Below are positions 2,715-48,694 of a DNA stretch of 64,000 nt, in pieces. A model generated the notes under the pieces. It saw nothing but the letters and a program-made list of their open reading frames with translations, ran no database searches and had not been told where the DNA came from. The translations under genes and the position numbers were made by a program. This DNA is from an uncultured Candidatus Saccharibacteria bacterium. GTDB taxonomy: Bacteria > Patescibacteriota > Saccharimonadia > Saccharimonadales > JBBQAJ01. The DNA is taken from positions 192,091 through 256,090 of the forward strand of contig CAZQHP010000001.1 in the NCBI GenBank assembly GCA_964593805.1. The letters run 5' to 3'. Position 1 is the first letter of the stretch; each line of letters begins with the position of its first letter.

Positions 2715-2743
2715 TATTGCTTTTTAGAATAGCATAGTCAGTA

Positions 2744-3568: not shown

Positions 3569-3574
3569 CTGAAT

Positions 3575-5094: not shown

Positions 5095-5168
5095 AAAACC
5101 CTTGCATAAGGTTAAAGCAAAAGTCTTGCAACTACAACTCCTAGAAAAATATGATAGGCTAAGGTCTA

Positions 5169-5744
5169 GTGAAAATACTATTCCTAAGACATGGTGCCAC
5201 AAAACTCAACCAAGAAGGCAAATTAAATGGCCAGATTGACGAGCCGCTGGCGACATTGGGCTTTGAGCAGGCTGAAGTAGCGGCTGGGATTGTGCCAAAA
5301 TCAGTTAAAGAAATCAGAGCCTCGTCTATGCTGCGTGCTGTTCAGACCAGCACTGTCATAAGCAAAGCCTTGGGCATACCACTGCTTACCCATGATGCAT
5401 TACGTGAGATAAATATGGGTTCGTTTGCTGGAAAATCATGGGCTGGTATTGAGACTGGTCAAAAATTCAAGCGCATACACCGCTCGATGCAATTTGATTA
5501 TAAGGAAGATGGTGGTGAGTCAGCACCGGAATTTAGAGATAGAGTAATCGGATTTGCGGAAGGAGTCGATGGTCAATATGGTGACCACGAATTGCTTATA
5601 GTAGCGCATGGTGGCGTGCAACGGTTGTTTGATTTACTTCAAGGCCAAGAAAACCAATCAGAAATTGAAAATGCGGTCTTGCTGGAGTTTGATTTGAGCG
5701 CAATCATAGCAAACGCGAATCTATATATTACTCCCACTCCGTAG
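5169..5744 (+). CDS. histidine phosphatase family protein (phosphoglycerate-mutase-like)
   Basis: N-terminal LRHGAT (RHG catalytic motif) and a later AHGG block. 191 aa. Confidence 0.8.
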   Translation: MKILFLRHGATKLNQEGKLNGQIDEPLATLGFEQAEVAAGIVPKSVKEIRASSMLRAVQTSTVISKALGIPLLTHDALREINMGSFAGKSWAGIETGQKFKRIHRSMQFDYKEDGGESAPEFRDRVIGFAEGVDGQYGDHELLIVAHGGVQRLFDLLQGQENQSEIENAVLLEFDLSAIIANANLYITPTP

Positions 5745-7635: not shown

Positions 7636-7660
7636 AATTGCTTTACATCACAAATTATTT

Positions 7661-8791: not shown

Positions 8792-11700
8792 AAATTCGCA
8801 AAGTAGTGATTTTGGGTTCTGGCGGTCTGCGCATAGGCCAGGCCGGCGAGTTTGATTACTCCGGTTCCCAAGCCATCAAAGCGCTCAAAGAAGAAAAAAT
8901 CGAAACAGTGCTGATTAATCCAAACATAGCTACCGTGCAGACAGACCCAGACATGGCGGACCGAGTGTACTTTGAACCTTTAAACGTAAAAACCGTCACG
9001 AAAATATTGCAAAAAGAAAAACCAGACGCCATCATGCTCAGTTTCGGCGGCCAGACCGCGCTAAATCTAGGTTTGAGCCTGCATGACGCCGGCGTATTCA
9101 AAAAACTCGGCATCCGCGTGCTTGGTACCCCTGTTGAGGTTATTAAAACAACTGAAGACCGCGATTTGTTCAAAAATGCCCTGGAGAAAATAGGCACCAA
9201 AACTGCCCGCAGTATCGCTGCTTATACGGTCAACGAAGCTCGCGCCGCGGCTCGGGAAATTGGCTACCCAATCATGCTGCGTTCCGGCTTTAGCCTGGGC
9301 GGCCTGGGTTCTGGCCGTATCAATAATGACCAAGAACTTTTGCGCAAAGTGAACGAAGTGCTCCGGGTCGTACCGCAAGTGCTGATTGAAGAATACCTGG
9401 CCGGCTGGAAAGAAGTGGAATACGAAGTAGTACGAGACACTGGCGGCAATACCATAACGGTCTGCAACATGGAAAACTTTGACCCCATGGGCATCCACAC
9501 CGGCGAAAGTATTGTGATAGCACCGTCCCAAACGCTCACTAACGAGGAATACCACCGGCTGCGCGAGGTCGCCATCAAGACCATAAACCACCTGGGAATA
9601 ATTGGCGAATGCAACATCCAATACGCGCTGAATCCGGAAAATGGCGACTACCGAGTGATTGAGGTTAATGCCCGGCTGAGCCGTTCCAGCGCGCTGGCTT
9701 CCAAAGCAACAGGTTATCCGCTGGCGTTTGTGGCCAGCAAACTGATGCTTGGCTACCGCCTGCACGAACTCAAAAACGCCGTCACCGGCACGACTTCGGC
9801 GTTTTTTGAACCGGCTCTGGACTACGTGGCCGTCAAAATGCCACGCTGGGATTTGTCAAAACTAAAATCCAGCGATCACACGATTGGCACGGAAATGAAA
9901 AGCGTCGGCGAAGTCATGGCGCTTGGAAGAAGTTTTCCCGAAGCCTTGCAAAAAGCAATCCGCATGCTAAACATAGGCGCCCAGGGACTAACCGCGCATC
10001 CGTTTGAATTCAAAGACCCAGCCAAAGAAATCGCTCATCCCACCGATAAACGAGTATTCGCAATTCACGATGCTCTCAAACTAGGGGTTTCCGTAGACCG
10101 TATTCACGAACTTTCCAAAATTGATAATTGGTTTTTGGAACATCTTGCCGACATGGTAGAAACCGCCAGCAGCATAAAGCGCCAGCCCCTAGCCAAAGAA
10201 TTACTGCTCGAAGCCAAACAGAAAGGCTTTGCGGACAACGTAATCGCAAAACTTAAAAATACCAAAGAGGAAAACATAAGACAGCAGCGCCAAAAATTCG
10301 GGATAGTGCCTTACATAAAACAGATTGATACCCTAGCCGGTGAATTTGACGCCGCAACCAACTACCTGTACACCACCTATCATGGCAATACCCACGACGT
10401 TGAGCCTCTCAAAAAACCAATTATAGTTCTAGGCTCGGGTCCGTACTGTATTGGTTCTTCGGTTGAGTTTGATTGGTGCGCTGTCAACACCGCCAAAACC
10501 ATCCGCAAACACAAACTGCCAACCGTCATGGTAAATTCCAATCCAGAGACCGTGTCTACGGACTTTGACAGGTCTGACCGGCTGTACTTTGAAGAACTTT
10601 CACTGGAACGAATACGAGATATTGCCGATTTTGAACATCCAAAATCAATTGTGGTTTCGGTCGGCGGGCAGATTGCCAACAACCTTGCGCTGCCGCTGCA
10701 TCAGGCAGGTTATCCCATTCTTGGAACACCGCCGGGTCAAATTGACCGGGCGGAGGACCGCCAGAAATTTTCATCTATGCTAAACCGATTGGGGATAGAT
10801 CAACCAACCTGGGATGAAGTTTCTACACTGGCGCTGGCAAAAAAGTTTGCCGCCAAGGTCGGCTATCCAGTGCTAATCAGGCCTTCATATGTGCTATCCG
10901 GCGGTGCCATGAACGTTGTGACCAACGAACAGGAACTCAAACAATACCTCCAAGAAGCGGCGCATCTATCTCCGGACCATCCGGTAGTAATTTCCCAATT
11001 CATCGCCAACGCCAAAGAACTTGAAATTGACGGCGTGGCCCAAAATGGCGAACTCATCATATATGCCGTGTCCGAGCATATAGAAAATGCCGGCATTCAC
11101 TCGGGCGATGCCACCGTGGTTTTTCCGGCACAGCGGCTATACCTGGAAACCGTCCGCCAAGCCAAAAACATTACCAAGCAAATTATCAGCAACCTGAATA
11201 TAACCGGTCCGTTCAACGTGCAGTTCATAGCTAAAGACAACGAACTAAAAGTAATCGAGTGCAACGTGCGGGCTTCACGGTCATTTCCGTTCGTGTCCAA
11301 AGTCAGCAACCATAATTTTATAGAAATTGCCACCGAAGCCATGCTAGGCATAAAAAATAACAATACATACCAAACGCTTGAGCTGGATCACGTAGGCGTA
11401 AAAAGCCCGCAGTTTTCGTATAACCGGCTCAAAGGCGCCGATCCGGTGGCTGGCGTGGAAATGGCGTCTACTGGAGAAGTGGCTTGTTTTGGCGACGACC
11501 TGGCTAGCGCATTCTATGCCTCGTGGCTGGCAACCGAACAGCACATCAAAGCTAAGACTATGTTTTTAAGTTTGCCGGACGAACAAAAGTTCAAATTCGT
11601 GGACGAAGTCGCGGCTCTAGTGGCGCAAGGCTGGCAAATATACGCTACCGCCGGAACGCACCAGTTTTTTAAGCAGCACGGTATCAAAACAATCAAATTG

Positions 11701-11952
11701 CGCAAAGTATCGGAGCGCAGAGAACCAAGTGCGGAAACAGCGATTGCCAAACAAAAAATCGCCCTGATGATTAATGTTCCCACCACCGTTGAAGAAGAAA
11801 CAACCGACGGCTATATCATCAGACGCCTGGCAATAGATAACCATATACCGCTACTCACCAATGCGGAAACTGGCCGGCTGCTCCTGAAATGCCTCGGCGA
11901 AAACGACTTTGCAACCCGCGAACCAAAATCATGGCAGGAGTACGTGGGCTAG
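8788..11952 (+). CDS. carB: carbamoyl-phosphate synthase large subunit
   Basis: 1054 aa. N-terminus [24 protein letters not shown], a duplicated ATP-grasp half ([19 protein letters not shown]) and an MGS-like C-terminus. Overlaps the carA stop by 4 nt. Confidence 0.95.
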   Translation: [1054 protein letters not shown]

Positions 11953-21012: not shown

Positions 21013-21430
21013 ATTTCCAAACAGAAAGAAGCACACCGTTAATTAGCAATACCACTAGGAAGTAACCAGTGTTAATTGCCCATAGTTTTTTGCGCGTGCC
21101 GGCAAAAATAGTGTTAACGCCCTGTGGTATGGCCACAAAAGCCAGCCATGCCCAAAAGGCTGTAAAAAGCCCGACCGACACGTCGCTGTATGTCGGATAA
21201 AAGTACGCCGCGAACGCGACAAAATGCAACAAAATATATGTCTGAACAAATGCCCCAATAGTGGTAATGACGTATCCCTGGGTTCCATCGCCCATTTCAT
21301 CCATTTTATGCCCTGTTAATTTGGACCACTGCTTGGCAAACAGCGCTGGCGAATACCAGACAAAACCCACCACCATATTTACGACTACGGCCGCAACTAT
21401 TGCTAACCAGTTAATATCTACGCTTGGCAT
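21011..21430 (-). CDS. DUF1761-like small membrane protein
   Basis: 139 aa with four predicted TM helices. The N-terminus, INWLAIVAAVVVNMVVGFVWYSPALFAKQW, resembles the DUF1761 family. Confidence 0.65.
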   Translation of the reverse strand: MPSVDINWLAIVAAVVVNMVVGFVWYSPALFAKQWSKLTGHKMDEMGDGTQGYVITTIGAFVQTYILLHFVAFAAYFYPTYSDVSVGLFTAFWAWLAFVAIPQGVNTIFAGTRKKLWAINTGYFLVVLLINGVLLSVWK

Positions 21431-21501
21431 ACAAACTCCTTATTTATCATAAATCTAGATATACGCTCTTTTACAAGAAATACAATATAAAAACTGTTAA
21501 G

Positions 21502-22245
21502 ATGATTCGTATGGATAACAGTCTTCAGCATCTTGAGGAATTCAAAAAAATTCTTGCTGACTATCATATATCAAATCAGAGCAAAACAATTTTGGCACGT
21601 ACCAAACTTGCTTTGCTTTTGGCGCCTTCGGGGGGAGGACGCAATACGCTAATCCGTGAACTGGTAAAAACCGGCAAATACCATTTTATAGTTTCAGATA
21701 CCACGCGAAAGCCTAGAGTAAACGACGGCATCGCAGAAAAAAACGGCGTGGAGTATTGGTTCAGAACTGAACAAGAAATACTGGCCGATCTAGAAGCAGG
21801 CAAATTCCTGGAAGCAGAACTGATACATGGCCAGCAGGTTTCGGGCATAAGTATACGGGAGTTGCAAAAAGCCCAAGACGAAAACCGAATTGCCATCACC
21901 GATGTGGATATGGGGGGCTTACACAACATTGTGCAGGCCGTTCCTGACATTACGGCCGTTTTGGTACTCCCGCCTTCGTTTGAAGAGTGGCAAAGGCGTA
22001 TGCTAAATAGAGGGGAAATGACCGTGAGTGAACACAAACGCCGCCTCGAGACGGCTATCAAAATATTTTCCATGGCGCTCGAACATAGCTACTTTAAGTT
22101 TGTAATTAATGACAAATTAGAACATGCCGTTGAGCAAATTCAGGCCCTTACCCACAAGCAAGTAAATACAGACCAGCAACAAAAAGACAGGGTGCTTACC
22201 AAACGGCTTATTACTGATACGCAAAATTGGCTAAAAACCAATTAG
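21502..22245 (+). CDS. guanylate kinase-like protein
   Basis: P-loop APSGGGRNTL followed by SDTTRKPR...GVEYWF, typical of the guanylate kinase family. Start taken as MIRMDN at 21502. Confidence 0.7.
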   Translation: MIRMDNSLQHLEEFKKILADYHISNQSKTILARTKLALLLAPSGGGRNTLIRELVKTGKYHFIVSDTTRKPRVNDGIAEKNGVEYWFRTEQEILADLEAGKFLEAELIHGQQVSGISIRELQKAQDENRIAITDVDMGGLHNIVQAVPDITAVLVLPPSFEEWQRRMLNRGEMTVSEHKRRLETAIKIFSMALEHSYFKFVINDKLEHAVEQIQALTHKQVNTDQQQKDRVLTKRLITDTQNWLKTN

Positions 22246-22268
22246 CACTCTTGACACCCGAGTGCCAG
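22242..22268 (+). promoter_or_regulatory. CIRCE operator 1 (HrcA binding site)
   Basis: TTAGCACTC-ttgacaccc-GAGTGCCAG versus consensus TTAGCACTC-N9-GAGTGCTAA. Confidence 0.8.
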
Positions 22269-22280
22269 CTCTAGTACAAT
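22251..22280 (+). promoter_or_regulatory. sigma-70-type promoter of the hrcA-grpE-dnaK operon
   Basis: TTGACA (22251..22256), an 18-nt spacer, then TACAAT (22275..22280). Bracketed by the two CIRCE elements. Confidence 0.6.
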
Positions 22281-22306
22281 TAGCACTAGCTTAAGATGAG
22301 TGCTTA
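22280..22306 (+). promoter_or_regulatory. CIRCE operator 2
   Basis: TTAGCACTA-gcttaagat-GAGTGCTTA. Overlaps the hrcA start region. Confidence 0.8.
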
Positions 22307-27411: not shown

Positions 27412-27457
27412 ACCAGGAGTAATTGCATAAACGCAAGCTTTATGATATAATGTAGCT

Positions 27458-28150
27458 ATGCCTGCAAAAAGGCCGAAATTGGGCCACCCAGAACCAGTAG
27501 AACTGTTGCCTACGCCGTCTCTAGAACATCGAGACGCAGTACTTGAAGAACGTCGTCGGAATGCCCGCCAGATGGGCGAAATAGCCCTGCGGTTCAAAGC
27601 GCTTCATGAAAAAGCCTACACCGACGAATTGACAGGTTTAGGTAATCGCCGATTGTTCGAAGAGTCCTTTCCGCAACACTTTGATTTTGCTCGAAACAAT
27701 GGCATAACACTAGCGCTAGCTTTTGCGGATGTGCGGGGACTAAAGCGAACCAATAAAAAGTCGGGGTATCCAAAGGGTGATGACTTGCTTAGGTCGGCCG
27801 CCAAATCGTTTCAGCAAATCGTACGCGAAGGCGACATTGTGGCAAGAATAGGTGGCGATGAATTCGCAGCAATTCTGGTGGGTTATTCGCCAAAACCCGG
27901 CCAATCTCAAGCAGAATTGAACCAGGAAACCGCGGAGCGATTGAGTGGGAGTTTTGTCACTCAAGCCCAAAAACATGGAATTCCGGACGAACTGCATGTA
28001 GGTCTAGATGTTGCGATAATAAACGAAACTGATCACGATACGCACCTTTCAATGTTTGACAAGGCCGATAAAGCACTGCGAGCACTGCAAAAACAAGAAT
28101 ACATAAACCTTGATGAAATGGGCATTACTTTTGTGGACAGCCGTCTATAG
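27458..28150 (+). CDS. GGDEF-domain diguanylate cyclase without a recognisable sensor domain
   Basis: LTGLGNRRLF...ARIGGDEFAAIL (intact GGDEF). Only about 55 aa precede the catalytic domain. Confidence 0.85.
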   Translation: MPAKRPKLGHPEPVELLPTPSLEHRDAVLEERRRNARQMGEIALRFKALHEKAYTDELTGLGNRRLFEESFPQHFDFARNNGITLALAFADVRGLKRTNKKSGYPKGDDLLRSAAKSFQQIVREGDIVARIGGDEFAAILVGYSPKPGQSQAELNQETAERLSGSFVTQAQKHGIPDELHVGLDVAIINETDHDTHLSMFDKADKALRALQKQEYINLDEMGITFVDSRL

Positions 28151-28195
28151 CTGCAACTATACAAATTGATCGTTTTGGTCAATAATGAGCTTAAG

Positions 28196-28312
28196 ATGAA
28201 AAAGCTTAAGCCTGAACAAGAAGGTTTTATACCGTTGCTATTAGGACTTATACTACTACTCATACTCGGCGTGTTATTCGTGTATCTTCGCGTCAGCCAC
28301 GCCAGCCAGTAG
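28196..28312 (+). CDS. candidate 38-aa single-pass membrane peptide
   Basis: ATG..TAG read by eye: MKKLKPEQEGFIPLLLGLILLLILGVLFVYLRVSHASQ. Below the ORF-track size cutoff. The only support is its hydrophobic core and intergenic position. Confidence 0.25.
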   Translation: MKKLKPEQEGFIPLLLGLILLLILGVLFVYLRVSHASQ

Positions 28313-28355
28313 CATTGACAGAGTAGGCTAATTTTGATATAATATACATTGTTTA

Positions 28356-28802
28356 TTGGTTAATACAATGAAACATACAACTACGCCCAAAACACTCGCA
28401 TCATTTGAACCGGTTATGTTCCCGGATTTTGCTAATATTGGCCGGATTATGGCCAAAATTGACACCGGCGCCTACACCGGCGCTTTTCACTGTACCAAGA
28501 TCAGGGAAGAAACTACACCCGAAGGCAAAGTACTGCGTTTTTCCCCATTTGACCACCCCGAAACAGAGGTAAGTTTGACAGACTTCGCCGTACGCCACGT
28601 CCGCAGCAGCAACGGGGGCGATCAAAACCGTTATTTTATAGACACCGTTGTAAAAATTCAGGGAGAAACATACCCGATTGTGCTAAGCTTAGCGGACCGG
28701 TCAGAAATGAAATGGCCGGTGTTAATCGGTCGCAAGTTCTTGCGAAAAAACAACTTCCTAGTCGACGTAAGCAAGAAACCGCAGGCAAGGATTCAATCAT
28801 GA
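28356..28802 (+). CDS. RimB-like / DUF785 retropepsin-like protease
   Basis: 148 aa with AKIDTGAYTGAFH and PVLIGRKFL blocks typical of the 'ATP-dependent zinc protease' (DUF785) family, which usually accompanies rimK. Its stop overlaps the rimK start (ATGA). Confidence 0.7.
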   Translation: MVNTMKHTTTPKTLASFEPVMFPDFANIGRIMAKIDTGAYTGAFHCTKIREETTPEGKVLRFSPFDHPETEVSLTDFAVRHVRSSNGGDQNRYFIDTVVKIQGETYPIVLSLADRSEMKWPVLIGRKFLRKNNFLVDVSKKPQARIQS

Positions 28803-29713
28803 AAATAGCTATTTTATCCAACGGACCAGGCAATTACTCCACCAAGCGCCTCAAAGAAGAGGCCTTGGCTCGCGGCCACGAAGTTGAAATTATCAAGTAC
28901 AAAGATTGCTACGCCGGTATTGAGCAAAGCAACCCAGTCGTTCACTACAAAGGTGAAAAGTTGGAGGGGTTTGACGTGGTAATCCCTCGGATTGCAAGCT
29001 ATATGACACGCTACGGTTCGGCTATTGTGCGCCAATTTGAAATGCAGGGCGTGTTTACCACCACTAGCTCAATCGCGCTGGTGCGTTCACGCGATAAACT
29101 GCGAAGTATGCAGCTGCTGGCGCGAGCTGGCGTGGGCATACCAAAAACCGTTTTTTCGCGCGGCGTAACGACCGATTTAGATGATTTGATTGAAGGTCTT
29201 GGCGGTTCGCCAGTAATCATCAAGCTGGCGCGAGGCACCCACGGCAACGGCGTAGTTTTGGCCGAAACGAAGAAAGCGGCCAAATCTGTACTCCAGGCAT
29301 TTTACGTCATGGATGACGACGGTACTAACATCATGCTCCAAGAATTTATAAAGGAATCCGCCGGCGAAGACATGAGGGCGTTTATTGTGAATGGTAAGGT
29401 TGTGGCTAGTATGAAGCGCCAGAGCTTAGACGACGATTTTCGTTCCAACCTGCATCAAGGCGGCGAAGGTAAAGCTGTCAAGCTCACAGAAGAAGAACGC
29501 AAAACTGCCCAAAAAGCCGCCCGTGCCATGGGTCTCTCCATCTGCGGCGTGGATATGATGCGTTCCGACAAAGGGCCGCTAGTCCTGGAGGTAAACGCCA
29601 GCCCCGGCTTTGGTATTGAAAAAGTCACTGGCCGCAATGTAGCCGGGCCGATAATTGACTACATAGAACAAAACGCCAATCGTAAACGCCGCCGCGACCG
29701 AGTCGGTGCCTAG
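28799..29713 (+). CDS. rimK: RimK-family ATP-grasp alpha-L-glutamate ligase
   Basis: MKIAILS..., ATP-grasp blocks (PVIIKLARGTHGNGVVL, QEFI, GVDMMRS..GPLVLEVNASPG). Start taken at 28799. Confidence 0.9.
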   Translation: MKIAILSNGPGNYSTKRLKEEALARGHEVEIIKYKDCYAGIEQSNPVVHYKGEKLEGFDVVIPRIASYMTRYGSAIVRQFEMQGVFTTTSSIALVRSRDKLRSMQLLARAGVGIPKTVFSRGVTTDLDDLIEGLGGSPVIIKLARGTHGNGVVLAETKKAAKSVLQAFYVMDDDGTNIMLQEFIKESAGEDMRAFIVNGKVVASMKRQSLDDDFRSNLHQGGEGKAVKLTEEERKTAQKAARAMGLSICGVDMMRSDKGPLVLEVNASPGFGIEKVTGRNVAGPIIDYIEQNANRKRRRDRVGA

Positions 29714-29800: not shown

Positions 29801-30280
29801 ATGCCGCCAATCATCCTCCTTGCCATAATTACCGGGTTGCCGCTTGCGCTGGCGGTTTTGCTTAGAGTTAAACCGTTGTATTTGTTTGTCAGTATAGTTA
29901 CCGGCTATTTTTGGGTGCAGTTTTTGGGTGAAACCGCTGAACTGATAGTGCGATCCATGGTACAAATTTCTCACCCGGATATCGCGGTTCGGTTGGGATT
30001 GCTGCTGCTGCCAGTTGTATTTACGTTCATGCTCATGCGCAAAACATTATCGGCTTCCGCGCTGCCGTTCCAGTTTATTTTGCTGGTTGCCAACAGCTTA
30101 TTGCTAGCCACGTTTTTAATCCCGCTGCTTTCCGCAGGTACACAGGGCGCAATCTACCAGACGCACACCGGCAGCATAGTTAGGCAAGCTCACGATGTTT
30201 CAATCGCTGGAGTCGCCGGCTTGCATCTGCTGGTCATGTTTCTGATGCGCCCAAAACCTCATGGCAAGCATCGCAAGTAG
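29801..30280 (+). CDS. hypothetical integral membrane protein
   Basis: 159 aa with about 5 hydrophobic segments. No family recognised. Confidence 0.5.
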   Translation: MPPIILLAIITGLPLALAVLLRVKPLYLFVSIVTGYFWVQFLGETAELIVRSMVQISHPDIAVRLGLLLLPVVFTFMLMRKTLSASALPFQFILLVANSLLLATFLIPLLSAGTQGAIYQTHTGSIVRQAHDVSIAGVAGLHLLVMFLMRPKPHGKHRK

Positions 30281-35786: not shown

Positions 35787-36086
35787 CTATTCCGAAAAAG
35801 GATTGTTTCTGGCTTGATCAAAAAGAGACTGGATCTGGATGTTTTGGTCCTGTAGCTGCTGGATTTTATCTATTACTGCCTGGTCGATTTTTGGGCGCTG
35901 TACGGTTTGAAGTTTTTCCTCTACTGCCGTTTCGCCGGGCTCTATTCGGCTAAATTGATTGATGCGAAAAACAAAAAATCCAAAAATTAGAAGAATGACC
36001 ATTGCGAAAATAAACACCACGTAGCGTTTTATAAACTCCAGAACAGGTCGAATTTTAGCTGGTAAATCTTTAAAATCTAATTTCAT
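35787..36086 (-). CDS. small bitopic membrane protein, last gene of the pilMNO operon (PilP-position)
   Basis: 99 aa with one TM helix. Start overlaps the pilO-like stop by 4 nt. Confidence 0.4.
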   Translation of the reverse strand: MKLDFKDLPAKIRPVLEFIKRYVVFIFAMVILLIFGFFVFRINQFSRIEPGETAVEEKLQTVQRPKIDQAVIDKIQQLQDQNIQIQSLFDQARNNPFSE

Positions 36087-36727
36087 GGTTTTATATATAG
36101 CGTTAAAGTTAGAGAAAAATTCAGCGCCGCCCGATTTGCGACATCCGGTTGTATAGAAATCTGCGATACTTGAGCGGTTCGGCGATTTTGCTCGAGCCGG
36201 CTCAGGAAGTCAATCAGCCGGCTATAGCTGGCAGGGCTCGTGATGTCTGAAGTCACCGTAATATCCAGCTGAAATAAATTCTGAATACCATCAACTTTTT
36301 TGACTTGCGTTTCCGAAGTTGTTGCCGGCGCGGTAGGCGTAGTTGTGGTGGTTCCGCCCGCCGGCGCTGCGGCTTTCGGTGCTGCCTGTCCAAGCGTGGA
36401 CGCCGGAAAGCCAATGGTGGCGATTTTGACGCCAGACAGTTTGGCCAGATTTACAATTTCGCGGGTTGCTCTGGCTTGGTCTTTGTCCTGCGGTACAATC
36501 TGCTTGGCGATAGATTCAAGTTCACTGTATTTTTCTATATCTTTTTTGGCCTGTGCCAAGGACGCTTCCTGGGCTTCAATCACCTGGTTCTCAAGCTTTA
36601 GTTCAACCAGTTTACGAGATTGCTTGCTTAAAAACGTATCTCCCAAAACTACCGTGGCAATTACCAACACGCTCATCAGGCCCAAAACTCCAAGCATAAC
36701 AAAAAAAACTCGCTTGCTGGTAATCAT
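36083..36727 (-). CDS. pilO: PilO-like type IV pilus assembly protein
   Basis: N-terminal TM helix, coiled coil, Thr/Ala/Pro linker. Positioned after pilN with a 4-nt overlap. Confidence 0.55.
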   Translation of the reverse strand: MITSKRVFFVMLGVLGLMSVLVIATVVLGDTFLSKQSRKLVELKLENQVIEAQEASLAQAKKDIEKYSELESIAKQIVPQDKDQARATREIVNLAKLSGVKIATIGFPASTLGQAAPKAAAPAGGTTTTTPTAPATTSETQVKKVDGIQNLFQLDITVTSDITSPASYSRLIDFLSRLEQNRRTAQVSQISIQPDVANRAALNFSLTLTLYIKP

Positions 36728-37338
36728 TGTGTTGTACCTCCGTTGCTAATGAACGAAAATGTATTATTTTTCGCAAACAAGGCTCTAATTTGAACGGCGC
36801 ACGGGTACTGTGATCGCAGGGGGTCTGTGGTGTTGGCGGTGGCTTCAGCGCACTGGATGTTTAAGATGTCAGCTTTCTCAAAAATTTTATTGTTAGGATC
36901 CTGGAGGTTTAACTGTACTTGTGTGGCGGTCTGATAATCTGCCGCGGCCGCCTGCAAATCCAGGCCGCCCTGCACCTTGTTAATGCTGAGGCTGTTTAGA
37001 ATTGAACCGCTAGGCAAAGCGCCCCCAATCTGGACAATTAATTTGGAAAACAAAATTTCACGCTGCAAAACTTGTGTTACCAATTTTAAGCTATCCGTGA
37101 GCTCTTGAACCTTTTTTTGAGTTTCGTCCAAGTTTTGTTCTTTGAGGTTTTCATTGCCTTGCTGGACTTGGGCCGCCAAAGAGTTAATTGATTGATGCAA
37201 GTACATCTGGCCCACGGCTACGGTACCGACTATACCGAAAATACTTATCAGCAGGGCAATTGACCATTTGCGCAGCCTAGTGTTGCGCCGGGCGTATACT
37301 GTACTTTTTTTCACGTCAGGGGGGAGAAGATTTATCAT
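36724..37338 (-). CDS. pilN: PilN-like type IV pilus assembly protein
   Basis: MINLLPPDV N-terminus (INLLP motif), one TM helix, coiled coil. Confidence 0.7.
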   Translation of the reverse strand: MINLLPPDVKKSTVYARRNTRLRKWSIALLISIFGIVGTVAVGQMYLHQSINSLAAQVQQGNENLKEQNLDETQKKVQELTDSLKLVTQVLQREILFSKLIVQIGGALPSGSILNSLSINKVQGGLDLQAAAADYQTATQVQLNLQDPNNKIFEKADILNIQCAEATANTTDPLRSQYPCAVQIRALFAKNNTFSFISNGGTTQ

Positions 37339-38396
37339 TGGTAAATCTCCCTTGAATTAACCAAAGACAGTCCAGAAACAGTCACATACATGGATCTCTC
37401 AATAGTGTGCGGTGGCTGGAGTCCGCCAAACTCAATATGCTGCCAAGGGTCGCACATGCGTACCGGCAGACGTAGCAAGTTGGTCATGTGCTCCGACAGA
37501 CCGGGCATGTTGGCGCCGCCTCCCATAGTTACGACCTGTCCGATTTTTCGCTGGGTACTGGAGCGCTCTTCATAATAACGAATCATCCGGCGGATTTCTT
37601 TGAGCATCTGCGCTAAAATCGCATCTAAACTGTCGGTAATCTCCCTTTGTTTTTTACTGACCCCCAGCCCGTATTTAGTTTTTATAACATGCGCTTCCTC
37701 TTTGGTGACGCCTAATTTGTTAGCTATCGCGGAAGTAAAACTATCGCCGCCGCCAGGTACCGTGCCAGTGACAACTATGGCTTTGTCATAAATGGTAATG
37801 TCTGAAGACAGCGAACCAAAATCGATCAGCACGGTCGGAACATCGCTTCGCTCTGCTTGCACAAAAAGGCGGCTCGCGGAATCAATGGTGGTTTCAACAG
37901 CCACAACTTCAAGCCCCATTAAAGCTGTGAGCTGTAGATATGAATCAACCATCTTTTTTGGAACTGCTACTGCTAGAATTTCTTGCTCTTTTTCCATTTT
38001 ATTAACAATTGCATAATCTATATACAGCTCCTCGATAGGGACGGGTACATACTGTTCCGTTTCTAGCCGAATTGCTTCAGCCAAATCTTTTGTGCTCAGT
38101 TTTGGAAGAGTAATAGTGCGCGTGAAAGTACGGGCTGCCGGTACCGCTACGGCTACGCGGCGGGTAGTTATTTCGCCGATAAGATGTTTGCCAAACAAAT
38201 CATCGGCAACTTTAGCAATGATCTCCGGATTAACGATTACGCCGTCTTTGAGGGCCGTTGGGTCAAAACCGGCTACGCCATAACCCATCACCAATTGGCG
38301 CTTGTTTTGCATGCTTGTTTGCATGACTTTAAGGCTCGAAAATCCAATGTCGAGGCCAAAAACTGGTTTGTCTTGATAAAAAACTGCGTTATTCAT
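37335..38396 (-). CDS. pilM: type IV pilus assembly protein PilM (actin-like ATPase fold)
   Basis: 353 aa. FGLDIGFSSLKV, IDFGSLSSDI and GGGANMPGL blocks. Confidence 0.85.
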   Translation of the reverse strand: MNNAVFYQDKPVFGLDIGFSSLKVMQTSMQNKRQLVMGYGVAGFDPTALKDGVIVNPEIIAKVADDLFGKHLIGEITTRRVAVAVPAARTFTRTITLPKLSTKDLAEAIRLETEQYVPVPIEELYIDYAIVNKMEKEQEILAVAVPKKMVDSYLQLTALMGLEVVAVETTIDSASRLFVQAERSDVPTVLIDFGSLSSDITIYDKAIVVTGTVPGGGDSFTSAIANKLGVTKEEAHVIKTKYGLGVSKKQREITDSLDAILAQMLKEIRRMIRYYEERSSTQRKIGQVVTMGGGANMPGLSEHMTNLLRLPVRMCDPWQHIEFGGLQPPHTIERSMYVTVSGLSLVNSREIYQ

Positions 38397-38504
38397 TGTC
38401 TGTTATGCTGCCCATCTATAAGCATAAGATCTTCATCAACTATAGCACAGATGCCAGCCAGGAGACACAGCAATCACGGTGATAATATAAAACTTTAGAA
38501 AAGG

Positions 38505-39890
38505 CTAGTTAAACTGGCGGCGGTAGCCGTCAATAACCCAAAAAGTTGTACCAGTTCCAGTGGAAGTGCCAAAAGTAATCGTGCCGCTATTGGAAAGCTC
38601 GACTGTCTGGCCAACCAAAGCACCAATTTGACCGCTGTTTTTGACGTGTACTTTGGTCCATCTTGAGTAAAATATAGTATTTGGGCCGGAGGCTGAATTG
38701 TCTAGTTCAATAGTCGTATCATTTTGTGAATTGAATAGGTCGTTACCGGTCACATTAGCGCAATCTGGCGAACAGCTAGCGTCACTTTTGTAGGTGATAA
38801 TCTGAAACCCAGTGCCGCTCGCGTTACTGCGCAGCAAAGAGCTATTGCTAAACTCAGCTTCAACACCGTCAACCATAATAACCGGCCTGGTGGTGCCCAG
38901 CGAATTAGCTACAATCATTTCAGTAGAATTTTTAAGTTCGAGCTTGCCTGTGATCCAGACGTTGCCGCTTACCGTCACTTTGCAGCTGTTAGTAATGCTC
39001 ACATCGCCAGTAATTTTTGTATTAGCCGCATAGGTCTTAGTGCCGCTGGAACAACTGGCTGCGGCGCCGGTAATTGTTGTGGCGACGGCTGCTTTTTGGG
39101 CATCACGGTCATGTGTCGGCAGAGCTTGCGGCGTCACGCAGTTTACGCCCGGAGCTGGCACAAGGCAGTGGGGCGTCTGAAGTCCAGGAGTGCTCATGCC
39201 AGTGCCAGTCGTCTGATTATTGGCTTTGACAGTACCGTAAATTTTGGCGGTATTGTTAAGGATGATGGGCTGGCCATTTTCGCCGCTGTTACAAACAACG
39301 GGGTATGCGGCGGTTGGAGGGGTCGGGCAAGATTGATGGGCGACGCTTAAATTTACCGGGTTAGTGCTTAGGCCGATTTGCGCCGAATTGCTGAGGGTAA
39401 CTTTGCCGTTTATGAACACGTCACCGCCTAAAATTTTGGAGCTGTTGCTCATTATCAGTCCGCCCACGCCGCCCACGACGCTGTATTCACCCGAACTAAC
39501 CGGGCGAAGGTCGACATTCACCTCTATGGTTGCCGACGGCACGGTACTAGTGACGGGCGTGTAAGTACGGCCGGTTGAGACTACGGTTTTGTTGTCGGCA
39601 TCCACGGCGGTCACGGCCACTTCGTAAGTAGTTCTAACCTTGCTGTCATTATGCAGCTCAACCTCTCCCGCCGTTCCCGACCAATTACTGTCTAGGTTGA
39701 TTTCTTGTAGTGCCAGATCTATGCCGCCGTCGGTTGCAAACTGGGCGTGGGAACGAAACTGGTCAGTCCTAGCGACTTTGAAACTAGATACTGTAAGCTC
39801 CATGTAAAGCGCCGTGATTAGCATGAGATACGGCAAGATGATTATGAGCGATACAAGTGCCGACCCTTTTTGGGATATATTATTTCGCAT
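38505..39890 (-). CDS. large PilX-like pilus-associated protein (possible tip/adhesin component)
   Basis: 461 aa. The N-terminal hydrophobic helix plus FKVARTDQFRSHAQFATDGGIDLAL resembles the PilX N-terminal domain. The long Thr/Ser/Gly/Asn-rich C-terminal region is of unknown fold. Start abuts the preceding pilin gene. Confidence 0.5.
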   Translation of the reverse strand: MRNNISQKGSALVSLIIILPYLMLITALYMELTVSSFKVARTDQFRSHAQFATDGGIDLALQEINLDSNWSGTAGEVELHNDSKVRTTYEVAVTAVDADNKTVVSTGRTYTPVTSTVPSATIEVNVDLRPVSSGEYSVVGGVGGLIMSNSSKILGGDVFINGKVTLSNSAQIGLSTNPVNLSVAHQSCPTPPTAAYPVVCNSGENGQPIILNNTAKIYGTVKANNQTTGTGMSTPGLQTPHCLVPAPGVNCVTPQALPTHDRDAQKAAVATTITGAAASCSSGTKTYAANTKITGDVSITNSCKVTVSGNVWITGKLELKNSTEMIVANSLGTTRPVIMVDGVEAEFSNSSLLRSNASGTGFQIITYKSDASCSPDCANVTGNDLFNSQNDTTIELDNSASGPNTIFYSRWTKVHVKNSGQIGALVGQTVELSNSGTITFGTSTGTGTTFWVIDGYRRQFN

Positions 39891-40558
39891 CAGAACTGAT
39901 TCCTTAAAGTTGTTCGTATACTGTTATTTAGTACTAGCGGATCCCCGAACGTATCTCGTTCCAGCACCAGGTCAATTTTTATGGATCTCGCCAGCAGCGC
40001 GTCGGTGGTTACCGCGTCGTCTTGATCGTATAGCGTAAACGCCATGTCTTTGGTTGCTTCATTTAGTACGCGGTCTGCCGGACAGCTTGGTGAAGCACTG
40101 GCGGCCGGGCATGAAGTTTTGAGTATGTTGCCCGCAGCGTCGGGATGGGCAAGTGTGCGCTTGTACAAAACACTGCCTTGCTTGAAATAAACTAGCTCAT
40201 TGTTGTAGGGGTTGCCGGTGGCGGTGTCGATAATGTAGTTGCGCGCACTGTCCAGCGCCGGTACAGCGATGATAATCACAAAATTAGTATTACTAGTGTT
40301 CCAACCGCTGGGAGCGCTTGGGTCGGCAATGGCGTTAGTTTGCCGAACGCCAGCGCCGTAACGAAGCTCTTCCACGGTAACCCTCAGCAGGTTTTGCGAA
40401 TCAACCGTCATGTCAACCAATATATTGTTGCGGGTAATCAACACCAGGTAATTAGTGATAATAGCCAGCAAGCTGACCGCTATGATGCCAATCAGCGCAA
40501 TGCTAATAAGCAGCTCTACGATAGTAAAGCCAGCGTTGTTTTTAGTATTGTCCGACAC
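39890..40558 (-). CDS. type IV minor pilin (prepilin-type N-terminal cleavage/methylation domain)
   Basis: NNAGFTIVELLISIALIGIIA class III signal. Confidence 0.75.
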   Translation of the reverse strand: MSDNTKNNAGFTIVELLISIALIGIIAVSLLAIITNYLVLITRNNILVDMTVDSQNLLRVTVEELRYGAGVRQTNAIADPSAPSGWNTSNTNFVIIIAVPALDSARNYIIDTATGNPYNNELVYFKQGSVLYKRTLAHPDAAGNILKTSCPAASASPSCPADRVLNEATKDMAFTLYDQDDAVTTDALLARSIKIDLVLERDTFGDPLVLNNSIRTTLRNQF

Positions 40559-40949
40559 CGAGTTCTCCTATAAGCGTCGTATATGTATATGTGCGGGCGA
40601 CCCCTTGCTCGTTATACGTTACAATCACCACCACCCGTTTAATCGCAGATGTCTGCGAAGAAATAACCAAACTCGCGCTGCGCGGGGCCACAAGCTCGCT
40701 TGGCAACTCGCTGGTAATGTCAGCGGTGCCGTCGCTGAGGCCGCTAAAACCAAGGCTGCGCAGAGCTTCAATCTTTGCCTCAACGTAAGAATTGGCCAAA
40801 ATAAGATCTCGGCTGCGTTGGCCTAAATAAGACTGTGAAATAACTATGGAATTTAAACCAGTCACCAAAATAGCTCCGACAAAAAGGGTAATCAACAGCT
40901 CAACAATGGTGAAACCGAGATCAGATTCGTTGCCCTCACGCTTGTACAT
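40542..40949 (-). CDS. type IV minor pilin (prepilin-type N-terminal domain)
   Basis: SDLGFTIVELLITLFVGAIL class III signal. 135 aa. Confidence 0.75.
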   Translation of the reverse strand: MYKREGNESDLGFTIVELLITLFVGAILVTGLNSIVISQSYLGQRSRDLILANSYVEAKIEALRSLGFSGLSDGTADITSELPSELVAPRSASLVISSQTSAIKRVVVIVTYNEQGVARTYTYTTLIGELGVGQY

Positions 40950-40981
40950 ACTTATGCTTTATTATAACGTCTACCGCGCTA

Positions 40982-42193
40982 TTAGTTGCCGATATTTTTA
41001 CTCAGGCTGGCAATCGGGCCCATCACACTGGCTGCAATCACGCCGACAATGCTGCCCAGAACTATAATCATGAGCGGTTCAATCAAGGCGCTCAGGCCAT
41101 CAATCATCGTTTCCACCTCTTCTTCATAAAAATCAGCCACTTTGACCAGAATTGTGTCAATCTGTCCGGTTTCCTCGCCAACCGCCAGCATCTGGCTGAC
41201 AATAGGCGGGAAATGCGGACTGGCGCTCAAAGGTTCACTCAGTTGTTTGCCGTTTTTCACGGCTTTGGCAGCTTCTTTCAGCTCGGCTTCAATGACCTTG
41301 TTTCCAATTGCCCCGCCAGTAACTTCCAGCGCATCAAGCACGCTTACACCGGCCGACATCAGCGACGCAAAAGTACGAGAAAAACGGGCAATGGCAATTT
41401 TGGTCACCAGGCCCTTTATAACCGGTATTCGCAAGAGCAGGCTGTGAAATTTAAATTTTCCTTTCGGAGTTTTGATATAACGCCTCACTAAGTAAACTGA
41501 ACCAAAAGTAATCCCAACCACCAGAACAACGTTGTGCTGCATAAAAGAGCTCATGTTCAGCATGGCTTGCGTATAAACCGGTAATTTAGCATCAGGGCCG
41601 CCAAGGTCAAGCAAAATTTTCCCAATCTTCGGAATTACTAAAATCATAATGCCAAAAAACGCGATCACAGTAATGCTCAAAATCACCATCGGGTACATCA
41701 TGGCGCTTTTGATTTTTTTGCGCATGCTGGCATCTTGCTCCACCTGGCTGGCAAGACGCTTCAAAATCTCATCCAAAATACCGCCCGCCTCGCCCGCCCT
41801 GACCATGTTTACGTATATATCCGAAAAAACGCTAGGGTATTTTTGCAAGGCGTCGCCTAAAGCCATACCGCTTTCGATATCTTTGGTAACGGCGCCGACA
41901 ACCCCTTTAAAGTATTTACTTTCGGATTGGCTTTGCATGGTAGACAATGCCCGCGTAAGCGGCACGCCAGCCGAAACCATAGTTGAAAGCTGACGCGTAA
42001 AAATAACCAGTTCCTTGAGTTTGACTTTTTTAGCACGTCCTTTTTTGACGCTCCCGCTACCCGCTAGCTTAACCACAATGGGGTGCAGATCCTGTTTGTT
42101 AAGCATTTCTACCAGGCTGCTGCGGTCGGTCGCATCGGCGGCTCCTTGAATGGTTTTGCCTTCTTTGTTGGTAGCGGTGTAGTTAAAACGCAT
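40982..42193 (-). CDS. pilC: type IV pilus platform protein PilC (GspF family)
   Basis: 403 aa. Two T2SS-F repeats and three TM segments. Confidence 0.9.
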   Translation of the reverse strand: MRFNYTATNKEGKTIQGAADATDRSSLVEMLNKQDLHPIVVKLAGSGSVKKGRAKKVKLKELVIFTRQLSTMVSAGVPLTRALSTMQSQSESKYFKGVVGAVTKDIESGMALGDALQKYPSVFSDIYVNMVRAGEAGGILDEILKRLASQVEQDASMRKKIKSAMMYPMVILSITVIAFFGIMILVIPKIGKILLDLGGPDAKLPVYTQAMLNMSSFMQHNVVLVVGITFGSVYLVRRYIKTPKGKFKFHSLLLRIPVIKGLVTKIAIARFSRTFASLMSAGVSVLDALEVTGGAIGNKVIEAELKEAAKAVKNGKQLSEPLSASPHFPPIVSQMLAVGEETGQIDTILVKVADFYEEEVETMIDGLSALIEPLMIIVLGSIVGVIAASVMGPIASLSKNIGN

Positions 42194-42195
42194 AG

Positions 42196-44010
42196 TTATT
42201 TCTCGCTCGTTACGCGGAGTATTTCTTCAATTGTGGTTTGTCCGCGCAACGCCTTGACAAGCCCGTCAACCTGCATGGTTATCATGCCGTCTTTTACTGA
42301 CTGGTCCTGAATCTCATCACTGGTGCTATTCATAACAATCAACTTTTGAACCGTTGGTGAGTTACTCAACACCTCATAAATTCCCACTCGCCCTTTATAG
42401 CCGCTGTGGCCGCAGGTCTCACAACCGTCTTCGTGGGCCTTGTAGAGCCTGGTTATCTTGGTGTCTGTGGTGGCTAGCTGTGAGGTATCAACTTGGCTCT
42501 TGCCGCTGCTTGCTTTGCCAATGCCGCCGTCCAAAGCTTGCTGCTCGAGCTGATGGACGTGCTTCATAACAGCCGCGTCGTCAGTGCCAAATATCTCAGC
42601 AATTTGTTTTAGAATTGGCGCGTCAGGTGTGATTTGTTCGCGGCAGTCCACGCATAAACGTCGTACAAGCCGCTGCCCCACGACCGCGCGAACCGTGCTG
42701 GCGATCAAAAACGGTTCAATGCCCATATCCAGCAAACGAGGCAAACAAGTAGCGGCATTGTTGGTGTGCAGCGTGGCAAAAACCAAGTGGCCGGTCAAGG
42801 CGGCTTGAACGGCAATATCCGCGGTTTCGCTGTCTCGTATCTCGCCAACCATTATGACATTGGGGTCTTGGCGCATTAAAGCCCGCAAACCAGTCGCGAA
42901 CGTCATGCCAGCCAATGGGTTCAGCTGAACCTGATTGGCTCCAGGTATACGATACTCCACCGGATCTTCAACAGTTGAAATGTTGATAGTTGGCTTGTTT
43001 AACAAACTGAGCGTGCTGAATAAACTGGTAGATTTGCCAGACCCAGTAGGGCCGGTCACTAGTATCATGCCGTGCGGCTGCCGGATTGCTTTATTTATGT
43101 TTTCCAAACTGATTCCCCAGTAACCGAGTTCCTCCAGAGTTGCGGCAGTGGATGATTCGTTCAAAATACGCATCACTACCTTTTCGCCTTCGGTAATCGG
43201 CAGGGTAGAAACACGCAAAGCATACATTTCGCCGCCCAGCTCTATTTTAAATCGGCCGTCTTGCGGAGCCCGGCGTTCATCTATTTTCAAATTAGACAAA
43301 ATTTTAATACGCGACACTAGCGCCCCATGGACTTTTTTTGGCAGTTTATTGGCTTCGCGCAGAATACCGTCTACTCTGTAGCGTACGCTCACGTAGTTTT
43401 CGCGCGGTTCAACGTGGATATCACTCGCGCCAGAGCGAATAGCGTACTCAATCAGCAAATTTACCGTCTGGGCAATTGGCGAGTCTTCCGCCAAATCGGC
43501 TTCATCTATTTCTTCGTCTTCTTCCTCTTCCTTGGCGTCCTCGGGCGAAATGACTTTGGTCAGTTCATTGCCAATCGTGCCGCGGTATTGGTCAAGCGCC
43601 GTCTGGATGTTCGAATTAGTGGCAACCGATACTTTTATCTTGTCGCCAAGCTGTTTTTGCAGAAAACTAATGGCCTGAATATCGTCTGGGTCGGCCATAG
43701 CCAACTGCTTGTTGCCGTCCTTTTCCACGCCAAAAAGTACCACGTTGTACTGCCGCGCGATTCGTTCTGGGATGAGACTCAGCACCTCGTGCTTTATTTC
43801 TTTGGGGTTGAGTTCAATAAAAGGCAGGTCAATTTCTTTGGCGTACAATTTTGTCAGATCTTTTTCGGTCGCAATACTGCCCTGGATAACTAAATCTTGC
43901 AGCGGTTTTTTTTCTGCCGTTTTTTGTTCGCGCAAACTCTTCAGCTGCTCGGCGGTTACTTTGCCGGCATCGGTTAAAAGTTTCTCTACCAGGGCGTCAG
44001 AAATACGCAT
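42196..44010 (-). CDS. pilB: type IV pilus assembly ATPase PilB (GspE family)
   Basis: Walker A GPTGSGKST, Asp/His boxes, tetracysteine motif CVDC...CETCGHSGYKGR. Confidence 0.95.
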   Translation of the reverse strand: MRISDALVEKLLTDAGKVTAEQLKSLREQKTAEKKPLQDLVIQGSIATEKDLTKLYAKEIDLPFIELNPKEIKHEVLSLIPERIARQYNVVLFGVEKDGNKQLAMADPDDIQAISFLQKQLGDKIKVSVATNSNIQTALDQYRGTIGNELTKVISPEDAKEEEEDEEIDEADLAEDSPIAQTVNLLIEYAIRSGASDIHVEPRENYVSVRYRVDGILREANKLPKKVHGALVSRIKILSNLKIDERRAPQDGRFKIELGGEMYALRVSTLPITEGEKVVMRILNESSTAATLEELGYWGISLENINKAIRQPHGMILVTGPTGSGKSTSLFSTLSLLNKPTINISTVEDPVEYRIPGANQVQLNPLAGMTFATGLRALMRQDPNVIMVGEIRDSETADIAVQAALTGHLVFATLHTNNAATCLPRLLDMGIEPFLIASTVRAVVGQRLVRRLCVDCREQITPDAPILKQIAEIFGTDDAAVMKHVHQLEQQALDGGIGKASSGKSQVDTSQLATTDTKITRLYKAHEDGCETCGHSGYKGRVGIYEVLSNSPTVQKLIVMNSTSDEIQDQSVKDGMITMQVDGLVKALRGQTTIEEILRVTSEK

Positions 44011-48122: not shown

Positions 48123-48694
48123 CTCATAACGAGACCATGGTCTCGTAGTGCCAATTCAACCAGCGATACTCTGTCAGCAATACTCACTGGTGGCAGAGCA
48201 ACAACTTCAAGTCCGGATTCTCTATATGCTTCTTCAATGGCAGCGTGCGTGAACAACGCTTCTTCCGCAGTCTCACGTCTTACTTCTGTTGCCATATACT
48301 GTTCAAGTGGTTGGCAGATAAGTGCAAAGCTATAGCGTGCAAACCATATCTTACGCTCAACATCAGGTATCAAGTCCTCAAAGCCGTTGATCCGTCCATA
48401 GGCAATGTTATCAACTAGGCTACGGTCTAGAAAAGTTACACCAGCTTCATAAGGAATTACGTCTTCAAGAGCCTCTGACTCAACAATGGCTAACGGTGCA
48501 AAGTTAGGGTAGTCAAGCCAAGGCACTTTCGGTTCGTAATCTTCGTGCCTTGCTGCAAAATCTAGCTCACGGTCTATTACTCGTGTAGCTGGCTCATCAA
48601 CAAAGTAGGCGTCGGGAAAACGCTCGTGCAAGGCTTCAACAAGTGTGGTTTTGCCAGTACAAGGTCCGCCAGAAATAGGTATTTTGTGTATCAT
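48119..48694 (-). CDS. AAA_28 / NadR-like P-loop ATPase or small-molecule kinase (passenger gene)
   Basis: 191 aa. Walker A SGGPCTGKTTL at residues 8-18 and a later hydrophobic-Asp strand (VTFLDRS). Start overlaps the stop of the upstream PurB::HAD gene (ATGA). Confidence 0.65.
   Translation of the reverse strand: MIHKIPISGGPCTGKTTLVEALHERFPDAYFVDEPATRVIDRELDFAARHEDYEPKVPWLDYPNFAPLAIVESEALEDVIPYEAGVTFLDRSLVDNIAYGRINGFEDLIPDVERKIWFARYSFALICQPLEQYMATEVRRETAEEALFTHAAIEEAYRESGLEVVALPPVSIADRVSLVELALRDHGLVMS

Follow-up and report, generated by a model that had tools for sequence, protein, structure and literature searches.

Does a GGDEF gene that abuts a ribosome-modification operon belong to that operon, or does it have affiliations of its own? 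The question is raised by a 64-kb stretch of DNA (the window, about 8% of its contig; positions 192,091 to 256,090 of contig CAZQHP010000001.1) from an uncultured Candidatus Saccharibacteria bacterium of the order Saccharimonadales, in which a gene for a GGDEF protein lies upstream of, and on the same strand as, genes for a RimB-like protease and the ATP-grasp ligase RimK. In Pseudomonas, cyclic di-GMP (c-di-GMP) is a ligand of RimK (Kd ~1 uM) that stimulates the enzyme, and RimA, an EAL protein, acts as a trigger phosphodiesterase (PMC7343187, PMC10092738). The preliminary description of the window, which had this Pseudomonas background right, proposed that the GGDEF protein stands in RimA's place in a dedicated module. 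Our analysis does not uphold that proposal. The region is probably made up of three units that lie back to back but are expressed separately, and whose order is kept across the Saccharimonadales. The first would be an hrcA-grpE-dnaK-dnaJ heat-shock operon controlled by HrcA through CIRCE elements; the second, an accessory GGDEF gene transcribed from an extended -10 promoter of its own and followed by the gene for a 38-residue membrane peptide; and the third, a self-contained rimB-rimK operon like that of P. aeruginosa, in which a consensus promoter of its own precedes two genes that overlap by 4 nt. So read, the locus as it stands is ordinary: a rimB-rimK operon beside an independently transcribed accessory GGDEF gene.

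Gene content and predicted transcription units

Reading of the open reading frames (ORFs) and Pfam searches confirmed all four genes of the preliminary description, each on the + strand. Together with their surroundings they give the + strand order gmk, two CIRCE elements, hrcA, grpE, dnaK, orf81, orf113, dnaJ, the GGDEF gene, a mini-ORF, rimB and rimK. The features on which the argument turns are the following.

22242-22268 and 22280-22306, + strand: two CIRCE-like inverted repeats (HrcA operators), with 2 mismatches each to TTAGCACTC-N9-GAGTGCTAA
26269..27411, + strand: dnaJ (gene call; Pfam DnaJ, DnaJ_C and CXXCXGXG)
27423..27451, + strand: promoter-like element of the GGDEF gene, TTGCAT-17 nt-TATAAT, with extended -10 TG
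27458..28150, + strand: stand-alone GGDEF protein, 230 aa (Pfam GGDEF 3.3e-27; NCBIfam; PDB sequence matches)
28196..28312, + strand: 38-aa membrane peptide, the mini-ORF (homologues, alignment, dN/dS)
28315..28343, + strand: predicted rimB-rimK promoter, TTGACA-17 nt-TATAAT, with extended -10 TG, matching at 12/12 positions
28368..28802, + strand: rimB-like retropepsin-type aspartic endopeptidase, 144 aa (PF05618; D32-T-G)
28799..29713, + strand: rimK, ATP-grasp alpha-L-glutamate ligase, 304 aa (Rimk_N and RimK ATP-grasp; NF007764)

Pfam and NCBIfam matches at these coordinates bear out the earlier identification of the GGDEF, RimB-like and RimK genes. Its further remark that the protease stop overlaps the rimK start was also correct: the TGA of rimB (28800-28802) and the ATG of rimK (28799-28801) share the 4-nt sequence ATGA. 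Because of this overlap, rimB and rimK are probably translationally coupled. The likely start of rimB is the ATG at 28368 (giving 144 aa, as in the source assembly) and not the TTG at 28356.

HrcA, GrpE, DnaK and DnaJ were identified by Pfam. The two CIRCE-like matches (0.02 expected by chance) lie directly upstream of and overlap the hrcA start, which points to a classical HrcA-regulated hrcA-grpE-dnaK-dnaJ operon in a genome of the candidate phyla radiation (CPR). From the end of this hrcA-grpE-dnaK-orf81-orf113-dnaJ series to the GGDEF gene is a distance of 46 nt.

How, then, are the genes downstream of dnaJ expressed? Our division into transcription units rests on predicted promoters only, and two such elements were observed. 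The rimB-rimK element starts 3 nt past the stop codon of the mini-ORF and ends 24 nt before the rimB ATG. Of 81 related loci, 56 have a sequence that matches the promoter consensus at 10 or more of the 12 positions in the 160 nt before rimB, in most cases 0-35 nt away from the start codon; among random 170-nt windows of the same loci, such a match was seen in 32/830 (3.9%). The GGDEF gene has an extended -10 box, TGATATAAT, at 27443-27451. The same TGnTATAAT element precedes the GGDEF ATG by 6-7 nt in nine related loci (L083, L084, L085, L048, L061, L063, L034, L036 and L078) and is found with both orientations of the gene, which suggests an independent transcript. Since the -10 box ends only 6 nt before the ATG, the GGDEF mRNA is probably leaderless.

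Position of the GGDEF gene in related loci

If the GGDEF gene were a component of the rim operon, the two should travel together. The preliminary description had named conservation of the GGDEF-rimB-rimK linkage in relatives as a check on its proposal, and we made that comparison on the best 80 species-representative RimK loci (69-84% identity, with 6-kb flanks), almost all from Saccharibacteria or Saccharimonadales metagenome-assembled genomes in a species-representative genome collection. Proteins of the window were placed in these loci by tblastn, and GGDEF domains by a hidden Markov model (HMM) built from the family.

In 69 of the 78 representatives with enough upstream sequence, rimB lies directly before rimK, and in 67 loci dnaJ lies upstream of rimB, at a distance of 0.2-4.8 kb. 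The GGDEF gene is present in 18 of these 67 complete dnaJ-rimB intervals and absent from 49; overall it was found in 23 of the 80 loci. Its strand is opposite to that of rimBK in 16 of the 23, and in 14 of them 848-4007 nt separate it from rimB, the space being taken up by ATP-grasp, glutamine amidotransferase (GATase), methyltransferase and other genes. The arrangement seen in the window, with the GGDEF gene on the same strand and abutting rimB, recurs only in L048, L050 and L069, that is, in 3 of the 80 representatives.

The constant neighbours of the GGDEF gene are dnaJ and the mini-ORF. Among the 18 representative loci that include dnaJ, 17 have the GGDEF gene 3-53 nt from the dnaJ 3' end, and about 20 of the 23 GGDEF-bearing loci have it beside the mini-ORF. 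Three further loci, looked up through their GGDEF proteins (86, 59 and 58% identical to that of the window), all show dnaJ and the GGDEF gene no more than 53 nt apart; two run straight into rimB-rimK and the third, L085, has another gene between GGDEF and rimB. On a neighbour-joining tree of RimK, the GGDEF-positive loci are scattered in small clades with shared orientation, as would be expected of a gene that has long occupied this position and has repeatedly been lost. No column of the RimK alignment separates loci with the gene from those without it; only conservative E/D and A/V swaps were seen.

It is because the GGDEF gene is not co-conserved with rimK in related genomes that the dedicated module is not upheld. 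The gene is anchored to dnaJ: 49 of the 67 intervals lack it, it runs antisense to rimBK in 16 of the 23 loci that have it and is not adjacent to rimB in 14 of them, and its predicted promoter is separate from that of rimBK. Its proximity to rimBK is explained by the conserved dnaK-dnaJ ... rimB-rimK synteny. In many relatives extra genes stand between the mini-ORF and rimB, and since this genome has none of them, GGDEF and rimB abut here. Any link between the GGDEF protein and RimK would accordingly have to pass through diffusible c-di-GMP only, with the GGDEF gene itself outside the rim operon.

The interval between dnaJ and rimB is in its own right a variable island. Besides GGDEF genes it holds, in one relative or another, RimK-like or TTL-like ATP-grasp ligases (TTL, tubulin tyrosine ligase, after their match to that family), other ATP-grasp enzymes, class-I glutamine amidotransferase/peptidase-C26 proteins, an S-adenosylmethionine (SAM) methyltransferase and HExxH proteins, one of these with a weak MATCAP match. 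Examples are at L037 4569-5558, L035 4236-5624, L045 3537-4124, L028 3057-4640 and L085 4930-6312. Such contents have the look of an enlarged set of tools, next to rimBK, for the ligation and trimming of amino acids.

The GGDEF protein

Close relatives of the GGDEF protein are rare: among 5.8 billion proteins, those that reach 48% identity to it fall into only nine clusters (clustered at 90% identity). A metagenome scan with the protein gave two distant, unrelated loci only (L081 and L082). Two short GGDEF-only proteins encoded on long contigs, P0111 and P0015, were set aside on account of their context: they have hydrogenase and GST neighbours and do not come from CPR genomes.

The AlphaFold model of the monomer (pLDDT 90.4) has a disordered segment (residues 1-21), a long helix of 33 residues (22-54) and, directly after it, a canonical GGDEF domain (55-212). 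As this is all that the model contains, the label 'sensor-less' given to the protein earlier is justified. The best fold matches (TM about 0.65-0.79) are to the coiled-coil and GGDEF portion of Caulobacter crescentus DgcB (6TTR) and to a leucine-zipper GCN4-WspR fusion (3I5C). In the close clade the N-terminus carries a proline-rich motif, HPEPV..LP.PP.E.R.AV..ERRR.

Is the protein an active cyclase? The preliminary description noted the intact RIGGDEF and called the protein a putative c-di-GMP-synthesising enzyme. The motif is indeed intact (G132-G-D-E-F136), and an RxxD I-site (R123-E-G-D126), which activity does not require, is found five residues before it, but activity does not follow from the motif. 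The equivalents of PleD Asp327, Lys332, Asn335 and Asp344, which bind metal and guanine, are kept as D91, K96, N99 and D108, each of them shared by 134 or more of the 137 GGDEF proteins in the alignment. At the positions that we take to be those of the phosphate-binding PleD Lys442 and Arg446, placed by the spacing of ADxxxYxAKxxGR, the protein has Gln211 and Tyr215. The former is K in 121 of the 137 proteins; the latter is Tyr throughout the close clade. All six PleD residues are on a published list for judging the catalytic function of GGDEF domains (PMC6629876).

Three further residues are out of the ordinary: K100 (D in 131/137), Y104 (H in 131/137) and R208 (Y in 113/137). Together with Q211 they are common to the protein of the window and its 86%-identical sister P0002, at positions that are 83-96% conserved among the 137 homologues. 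The four substitutions could form two pairs whose members offset each other (D to K and K to Q; H to Y and Y to R). A reading as a Hypr-GGDEF (cGAMP synthase) was rejected since D108, the equivalent of Asp344, is retained. Purifying selection (dN/dS 0.09 against the closest relative) indicates that the gene is functional in some way; efficient cyclase activity, judged from these residues, is not assured. If active, the protein would be expected to dimerise via its helix and make c-di-GMP, with feedback inhibition via the I-site and control mainly by expression level.

The 38-residue membrane peptide

That the 38-codon ORF between the GGDEF gene and rimB is a real gene is borne out by homologues at 69 of 85 loci (66 of 80 representatives) and by a dN/dS of 0.06 against the closest relative. 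The homologues are 35-41 aa long, lie between dnaJ and rimB (for instance L083 3649-3771 and L039 3318-3434) and were left uncalled by the gene callers of the assemblies. All follow one pattern: a basic N-terminus, an invariant Gly in xGFI[PT][LM], about 20 hydrophobic residues, and Y-x-RV, as in a single-pass membrane peptide. No Pfam or NCBIfam match was found. The mini-ORF also occurs in most loci without the GGDEF gene and so is not specific to those that have it. A pilin-like nature (G|F after the basic leader) was rejected: the signal of class III prepilins has a conserved Glu at position +5, and this is absent.

RimB and RimK

The protease matches the Pfam Zn_protease/RimB-like family PF05618 (6.4e-17; 62 bits against a cutoff of 27). 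Its best NCBIfam match is Asp_endo_RimB, at 57.9 bits, which is under the 200-bit equivalog cutoff. The catalytic motif Asp-Thr-Gly can be read from the sequence as D32-T-G; in P. fluorescens RimB this motif contains an essential Asp (PMC11957791). The ligase has both Pfam domains (Rimk_N, 6e-36; RimK ATP-grasp, 6e-57) and scores 333.9 bits against NF007764 (30S ribosomal protein S6--L-glutamate ligase), above the equivalog cutoff of 331. Its identity to the P. aeruginosa enzyme (PDB 7QYR) is 55%, and it matches E. coli RimK (4IWX, 5ZCT) at 1e-87. By homology, RimK would extend a C-terminal Glu, in the classical case that of S6, with alpha-linked glutamates, or would make free poly-alpha-glutamate, and RimB, as a DTG protease, would trim poly-Glu tails and stimulate RimK. 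Queries with approximate E. coli sequences found no rpsF, rpsR or ssb in the window or the fetched loci, and none of the ORF products of the window finishes in an acidic, Glu-terminated tail.

All genes of the locus are under purifying selection, and rimK is extremely so. Against the closest relative, dN/dS is 0.09 for rimB and 0.005 for rimK, the latter at a dS of 0.47 (window 28799-29713 against L083 4261-5175), so that the two RimK proteins are essentially identical; for comparison, DnaJ gives 0.04 and the membrane protein encoded downstream of rimK about 0.09. The rimB-rimK pair is near-universal and very strongly conserved in environmental Saccharimonadales. For these reasons, chemistry on ribosome tails or on poly-glutamate may be of some importance to such reduced genomes. 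The full-text literature that we searched yielded no paper that mentions both Saccharibacteria and RimK.

Other c-di-GMP components

About a quarter of the genomes keep a dnaJ-anchored, sensor-less GGDEF gene that has no phosphodiesterase or receptor evident close by. Among the ORFs scanned across the 64 kb there is no EAL, HD-GYP or PilZ protein; the window has no second GGDEF domain, and an Rfam search of it gave tRNAs only, with no c-di-GMP riboswitch.

A type IV pilus cluster lies at 36083-44010 on the minus strand (PilM, two or three N-methyl pilin-like proteins, a PilX_N protein, PilC and PilB). Its PilB (42196-44010, minus strand) has a Pfam MshEN match of 3.9e-18 and was considered as an alternative c-di-GMP receptor. 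MshEN domains bind c-di-GMP through a tandem 24-residue motif, RLGxx(L/V/I)(L/V/I)xxG(L/V/I)(L/V/I)xxxxLxxxLxxQ (PMC5013675). The N-terminus of PilB matches neither the strict nor a relaxed form of this motif, and the candidate was dropped.

Alternative readings

Several points weigh against the division into three separate units. The promoters are consensus matches rather than mapped starts. No terminator-like hairpin was found between dnaJ, the GGDEF gene, the mini-ORF and rimB, where hairpins were no better than in shuffled sequence, so that read-through could co-transcribe the units in this genome. The presence of the GGDEF gene was scored in local context only, and within that context 29% of relatives keep it within 0.1-4 kb of rimB. 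Every GGDEF match in about 1 Mb of related loci lies upstream of rimB, which could be more than inherited synteny. Finally, Pseudomonas RimK, 55% identical to the one encoded here, genuinely binds c-di-GMP. Could the GGDEF protein then be the dedicated input enzyme of rimB-rimK, with locally made c-di-GMP stimulating the ATPase and glutamylation activities of RimK, and with a sign opposite to that of P. fluorescens RimA? The genes are contiguous and on one strand in the window, in its closest relatives L083 and L084 and in L048, L050 and L069; there is no terminator between GGDEF and rimB; RimK is an equivalog-level orthologue of proteins that bind c-di-GMP with a Kd of ~1 uM (PMC7343187); and the GGDEF protein keeps its motif, its I-site and four of the six PleD substrate- or metal-binding residues outside the motif. 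We nevertheless think a dedicated module improbable. It would have to accommodate an arrangement shared by 3 of 80 representatives, a GGDEF gene that 49 of 67 complete intervals lack, that runs antisense to rimBK in 16 of 23 loci and that is tied to dnaJ and the mini-ORF instead of rimB, a rimBK operon with its own conserved promoter, a RimK with no residues that co-vary with GGDEF, and the loss of the Lys442 and Arg446 equivalents. Nor can c-di-GMP binding by this RimK be predicted from its sequence, because the c-di-GMP site on RimK is not resolved (PMC10092738). Since the Pseudomonas enzyme does bind the nucleotide (Kd ~1 uM, PMC7343187), diffusible c-di-GMP may, by analogy, act on RimK in trans.

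Given that dnaJ (within 53 nt) and the mini-ORF are the tightest conserved neighbours of the GGDEF gene, one may ask whether it belongs with the heat-shock operon, with the peptide or with both, so that c-di-GMP would be linked to stress and have targets elsewhere, such as surface attachment or type IV pili, RimK being irrelevant. Directly upstream is an operon under CIRCE control, not set apart from the gene by any terminator, and the pilus cluster, including a PilB with an MshEN-family domain, is 8-16 kb downstream. In 16 of 23 loci, however, the GGDEF gene converges on dnaJ, so that the two have not kept an arrangement in which the gene could be transcribed along with the heat-shock operon; most loci that lack GGDEF have the mini-ORF all the same; the PilB N-terminus fails even the relaxed MshEN motif; and the window has no PilZ, EAL or HD-GYP domain among the ORFs scanned and no c-di-GMP riboswitch. 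We regard this affiliation as unlikely. The protein might instead no longer be an efficient cyclase and serve as a binder of c-di-GMP or another nucleotide, or as a protein-interaction module, by way of its I-site and N-terminal motif. The changes to K100, Y104, R208 and Q211 in the window protein and its sister, the Tyr that the whole close clade has in place of Arg446, the presence of Lys442 and Arg446 on the catalytic residue list (PMC6629876) and the purifying selection that shows some function would all agree with this. On the other side, the GGDEF motif and the equivalents of Asp327, Lys332, Asn335 and Asp344 are intact, Lys212 adjoins Gln211 and could substitute for it, the paired D/K and H/Y changes could be compensatory packing, and the genome is not known to encode a second cyclase to make the product that the protein would sense; we therefore give such a change of function little credence.

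Three separate units, with a GGDEF gene that came to lie beside rimB through synteny, remain the reading that we favour. In an ultra-small genome of the episymbiont type, a minimal circuit can be imagined in which a lone, sensor-less GGDEF enzyme, made from a leaderless transcript and encoded behind an HrcA heat-shock operon, would have RimK as the main receptor of its c-di-GMP, stress thereby tuning the polyglutamylation of S6 by RimK and RimB with no need of a phosphodiesterase or classical receptor. Were RimK indeed such a receptor, this would be among the simplest second-messenger-to-ribosome circuits known; the comparative data disfavour it, and we hold it to be very unlikely. What is worth recording is the conservation of rimBK, the ATP-grasp-rich island of the relatives, the dnaJ-anchored GGDEF family and the 38-aa peptide.

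Other features of the window

Beyond rimK come a gene for a 159-aa membrane protein, a DUF4234 gene (minus strand), tRNA-Lys, comEC, yebC, ruvC, ruvA and ruvB. The 159-aa protein (29801-30280) is multi-pass and has no family assignment; homologues with 25-67% identity lie downstream of rimK in roughly half of the related loci.

Genes of nucleotide biosynthesis are found at 1639-11952, 5728-7635 (minus strand) and 21424-22245. Those of de novo pyrimidine synthesis encode dihydroorotate dehydrogenase, OMP decarboxylase, a phosphoribosyltransferase, aspartate carbamoyltransferase and the small and large chains of carbamoyl-phosphate synthase; GMP synthase and guanylate kinase are encoded there as well. 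To our knowledge, this complement of nucleotide biosynthesis exceeds what is usually described for Saccharibacteria.

An IS1595-family transposase gene (DDE_Tnp_IS1595 and zinc ribbon) is at 51238-52092 on the minus strand. In the stretch around it, from 46 to 52 kb, the G+C content is 0.42-0.46, against about 0.49 elsewhere, and this segment may have been acquired recently. Two ORFs on the minus strand have unusual domain combinations. The one at 60841-62433 joins, in one frame, an XRE-type HTH_3 domain (residues 36-87, 4.5e-16) to a full MurA/EPSP-synthase domain (99-517), and is either an unusual fusion or the product of an over-extended start codon. The one at 48691-50862 (723 aa) is an adenylosuccinate lyase (Lyase_1 and ASL_C) fused to a C-terminal HAD-family hydrolase.

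Comparison with known systems

The rimABK systems of P. fluorescens and P. syringae resemble the locus in having homologues of RimB and RimK with a c-di-GMP-related gene upstream on the same strand. Here, however, that gene is of the synthesis type (GGDEF) and there is no EAL protein RimA; moreover, the GGDEF gene has its own predicted promoter, and in relatives it is optional, often inverted and tied to dnaJ. With E. coli, where rimK is solitary, the locus shares RimK orthology, but its rimK is, by its overlap, probably translationally coupled to rimB.

The GGDEF protein itself is like the DgcB fragment 6TTR and the GCN4-WspR fusion 3I5C in that a long N-terminal helix leads into the GGDEF domain, with a GGDEF motif and an I-site. 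Unlike cyclases of the DgcB or WspR type, it has no sensor or receiver domain, its equivalents of Lys442 and Arg446 are replaced, its N-terminus carries a clade-specific proline-rich motif, and its transcript is probably leaderless.

Distinct rimB and rimK genes are present in 44% of rim-positive genomes (PMC11957791), and P. aeruginosa has a rimB-rimK pair without rimA (PMC10092738). It is this last arrangement that the locus resembles most. The pair, its order and its strand are the same, and neither unit includes an EAL gene; RimK is 55% identical and of equivalog level, and RimB has the RimB-like domain and the DTG motif. The differences are that the host is here an ultra-small Saccharimonadales (CPR/Patescibacteria) genome and that RimB is divergent (57.9 of 200 bits), with 30-45% identity even among most Saccharimonadales.

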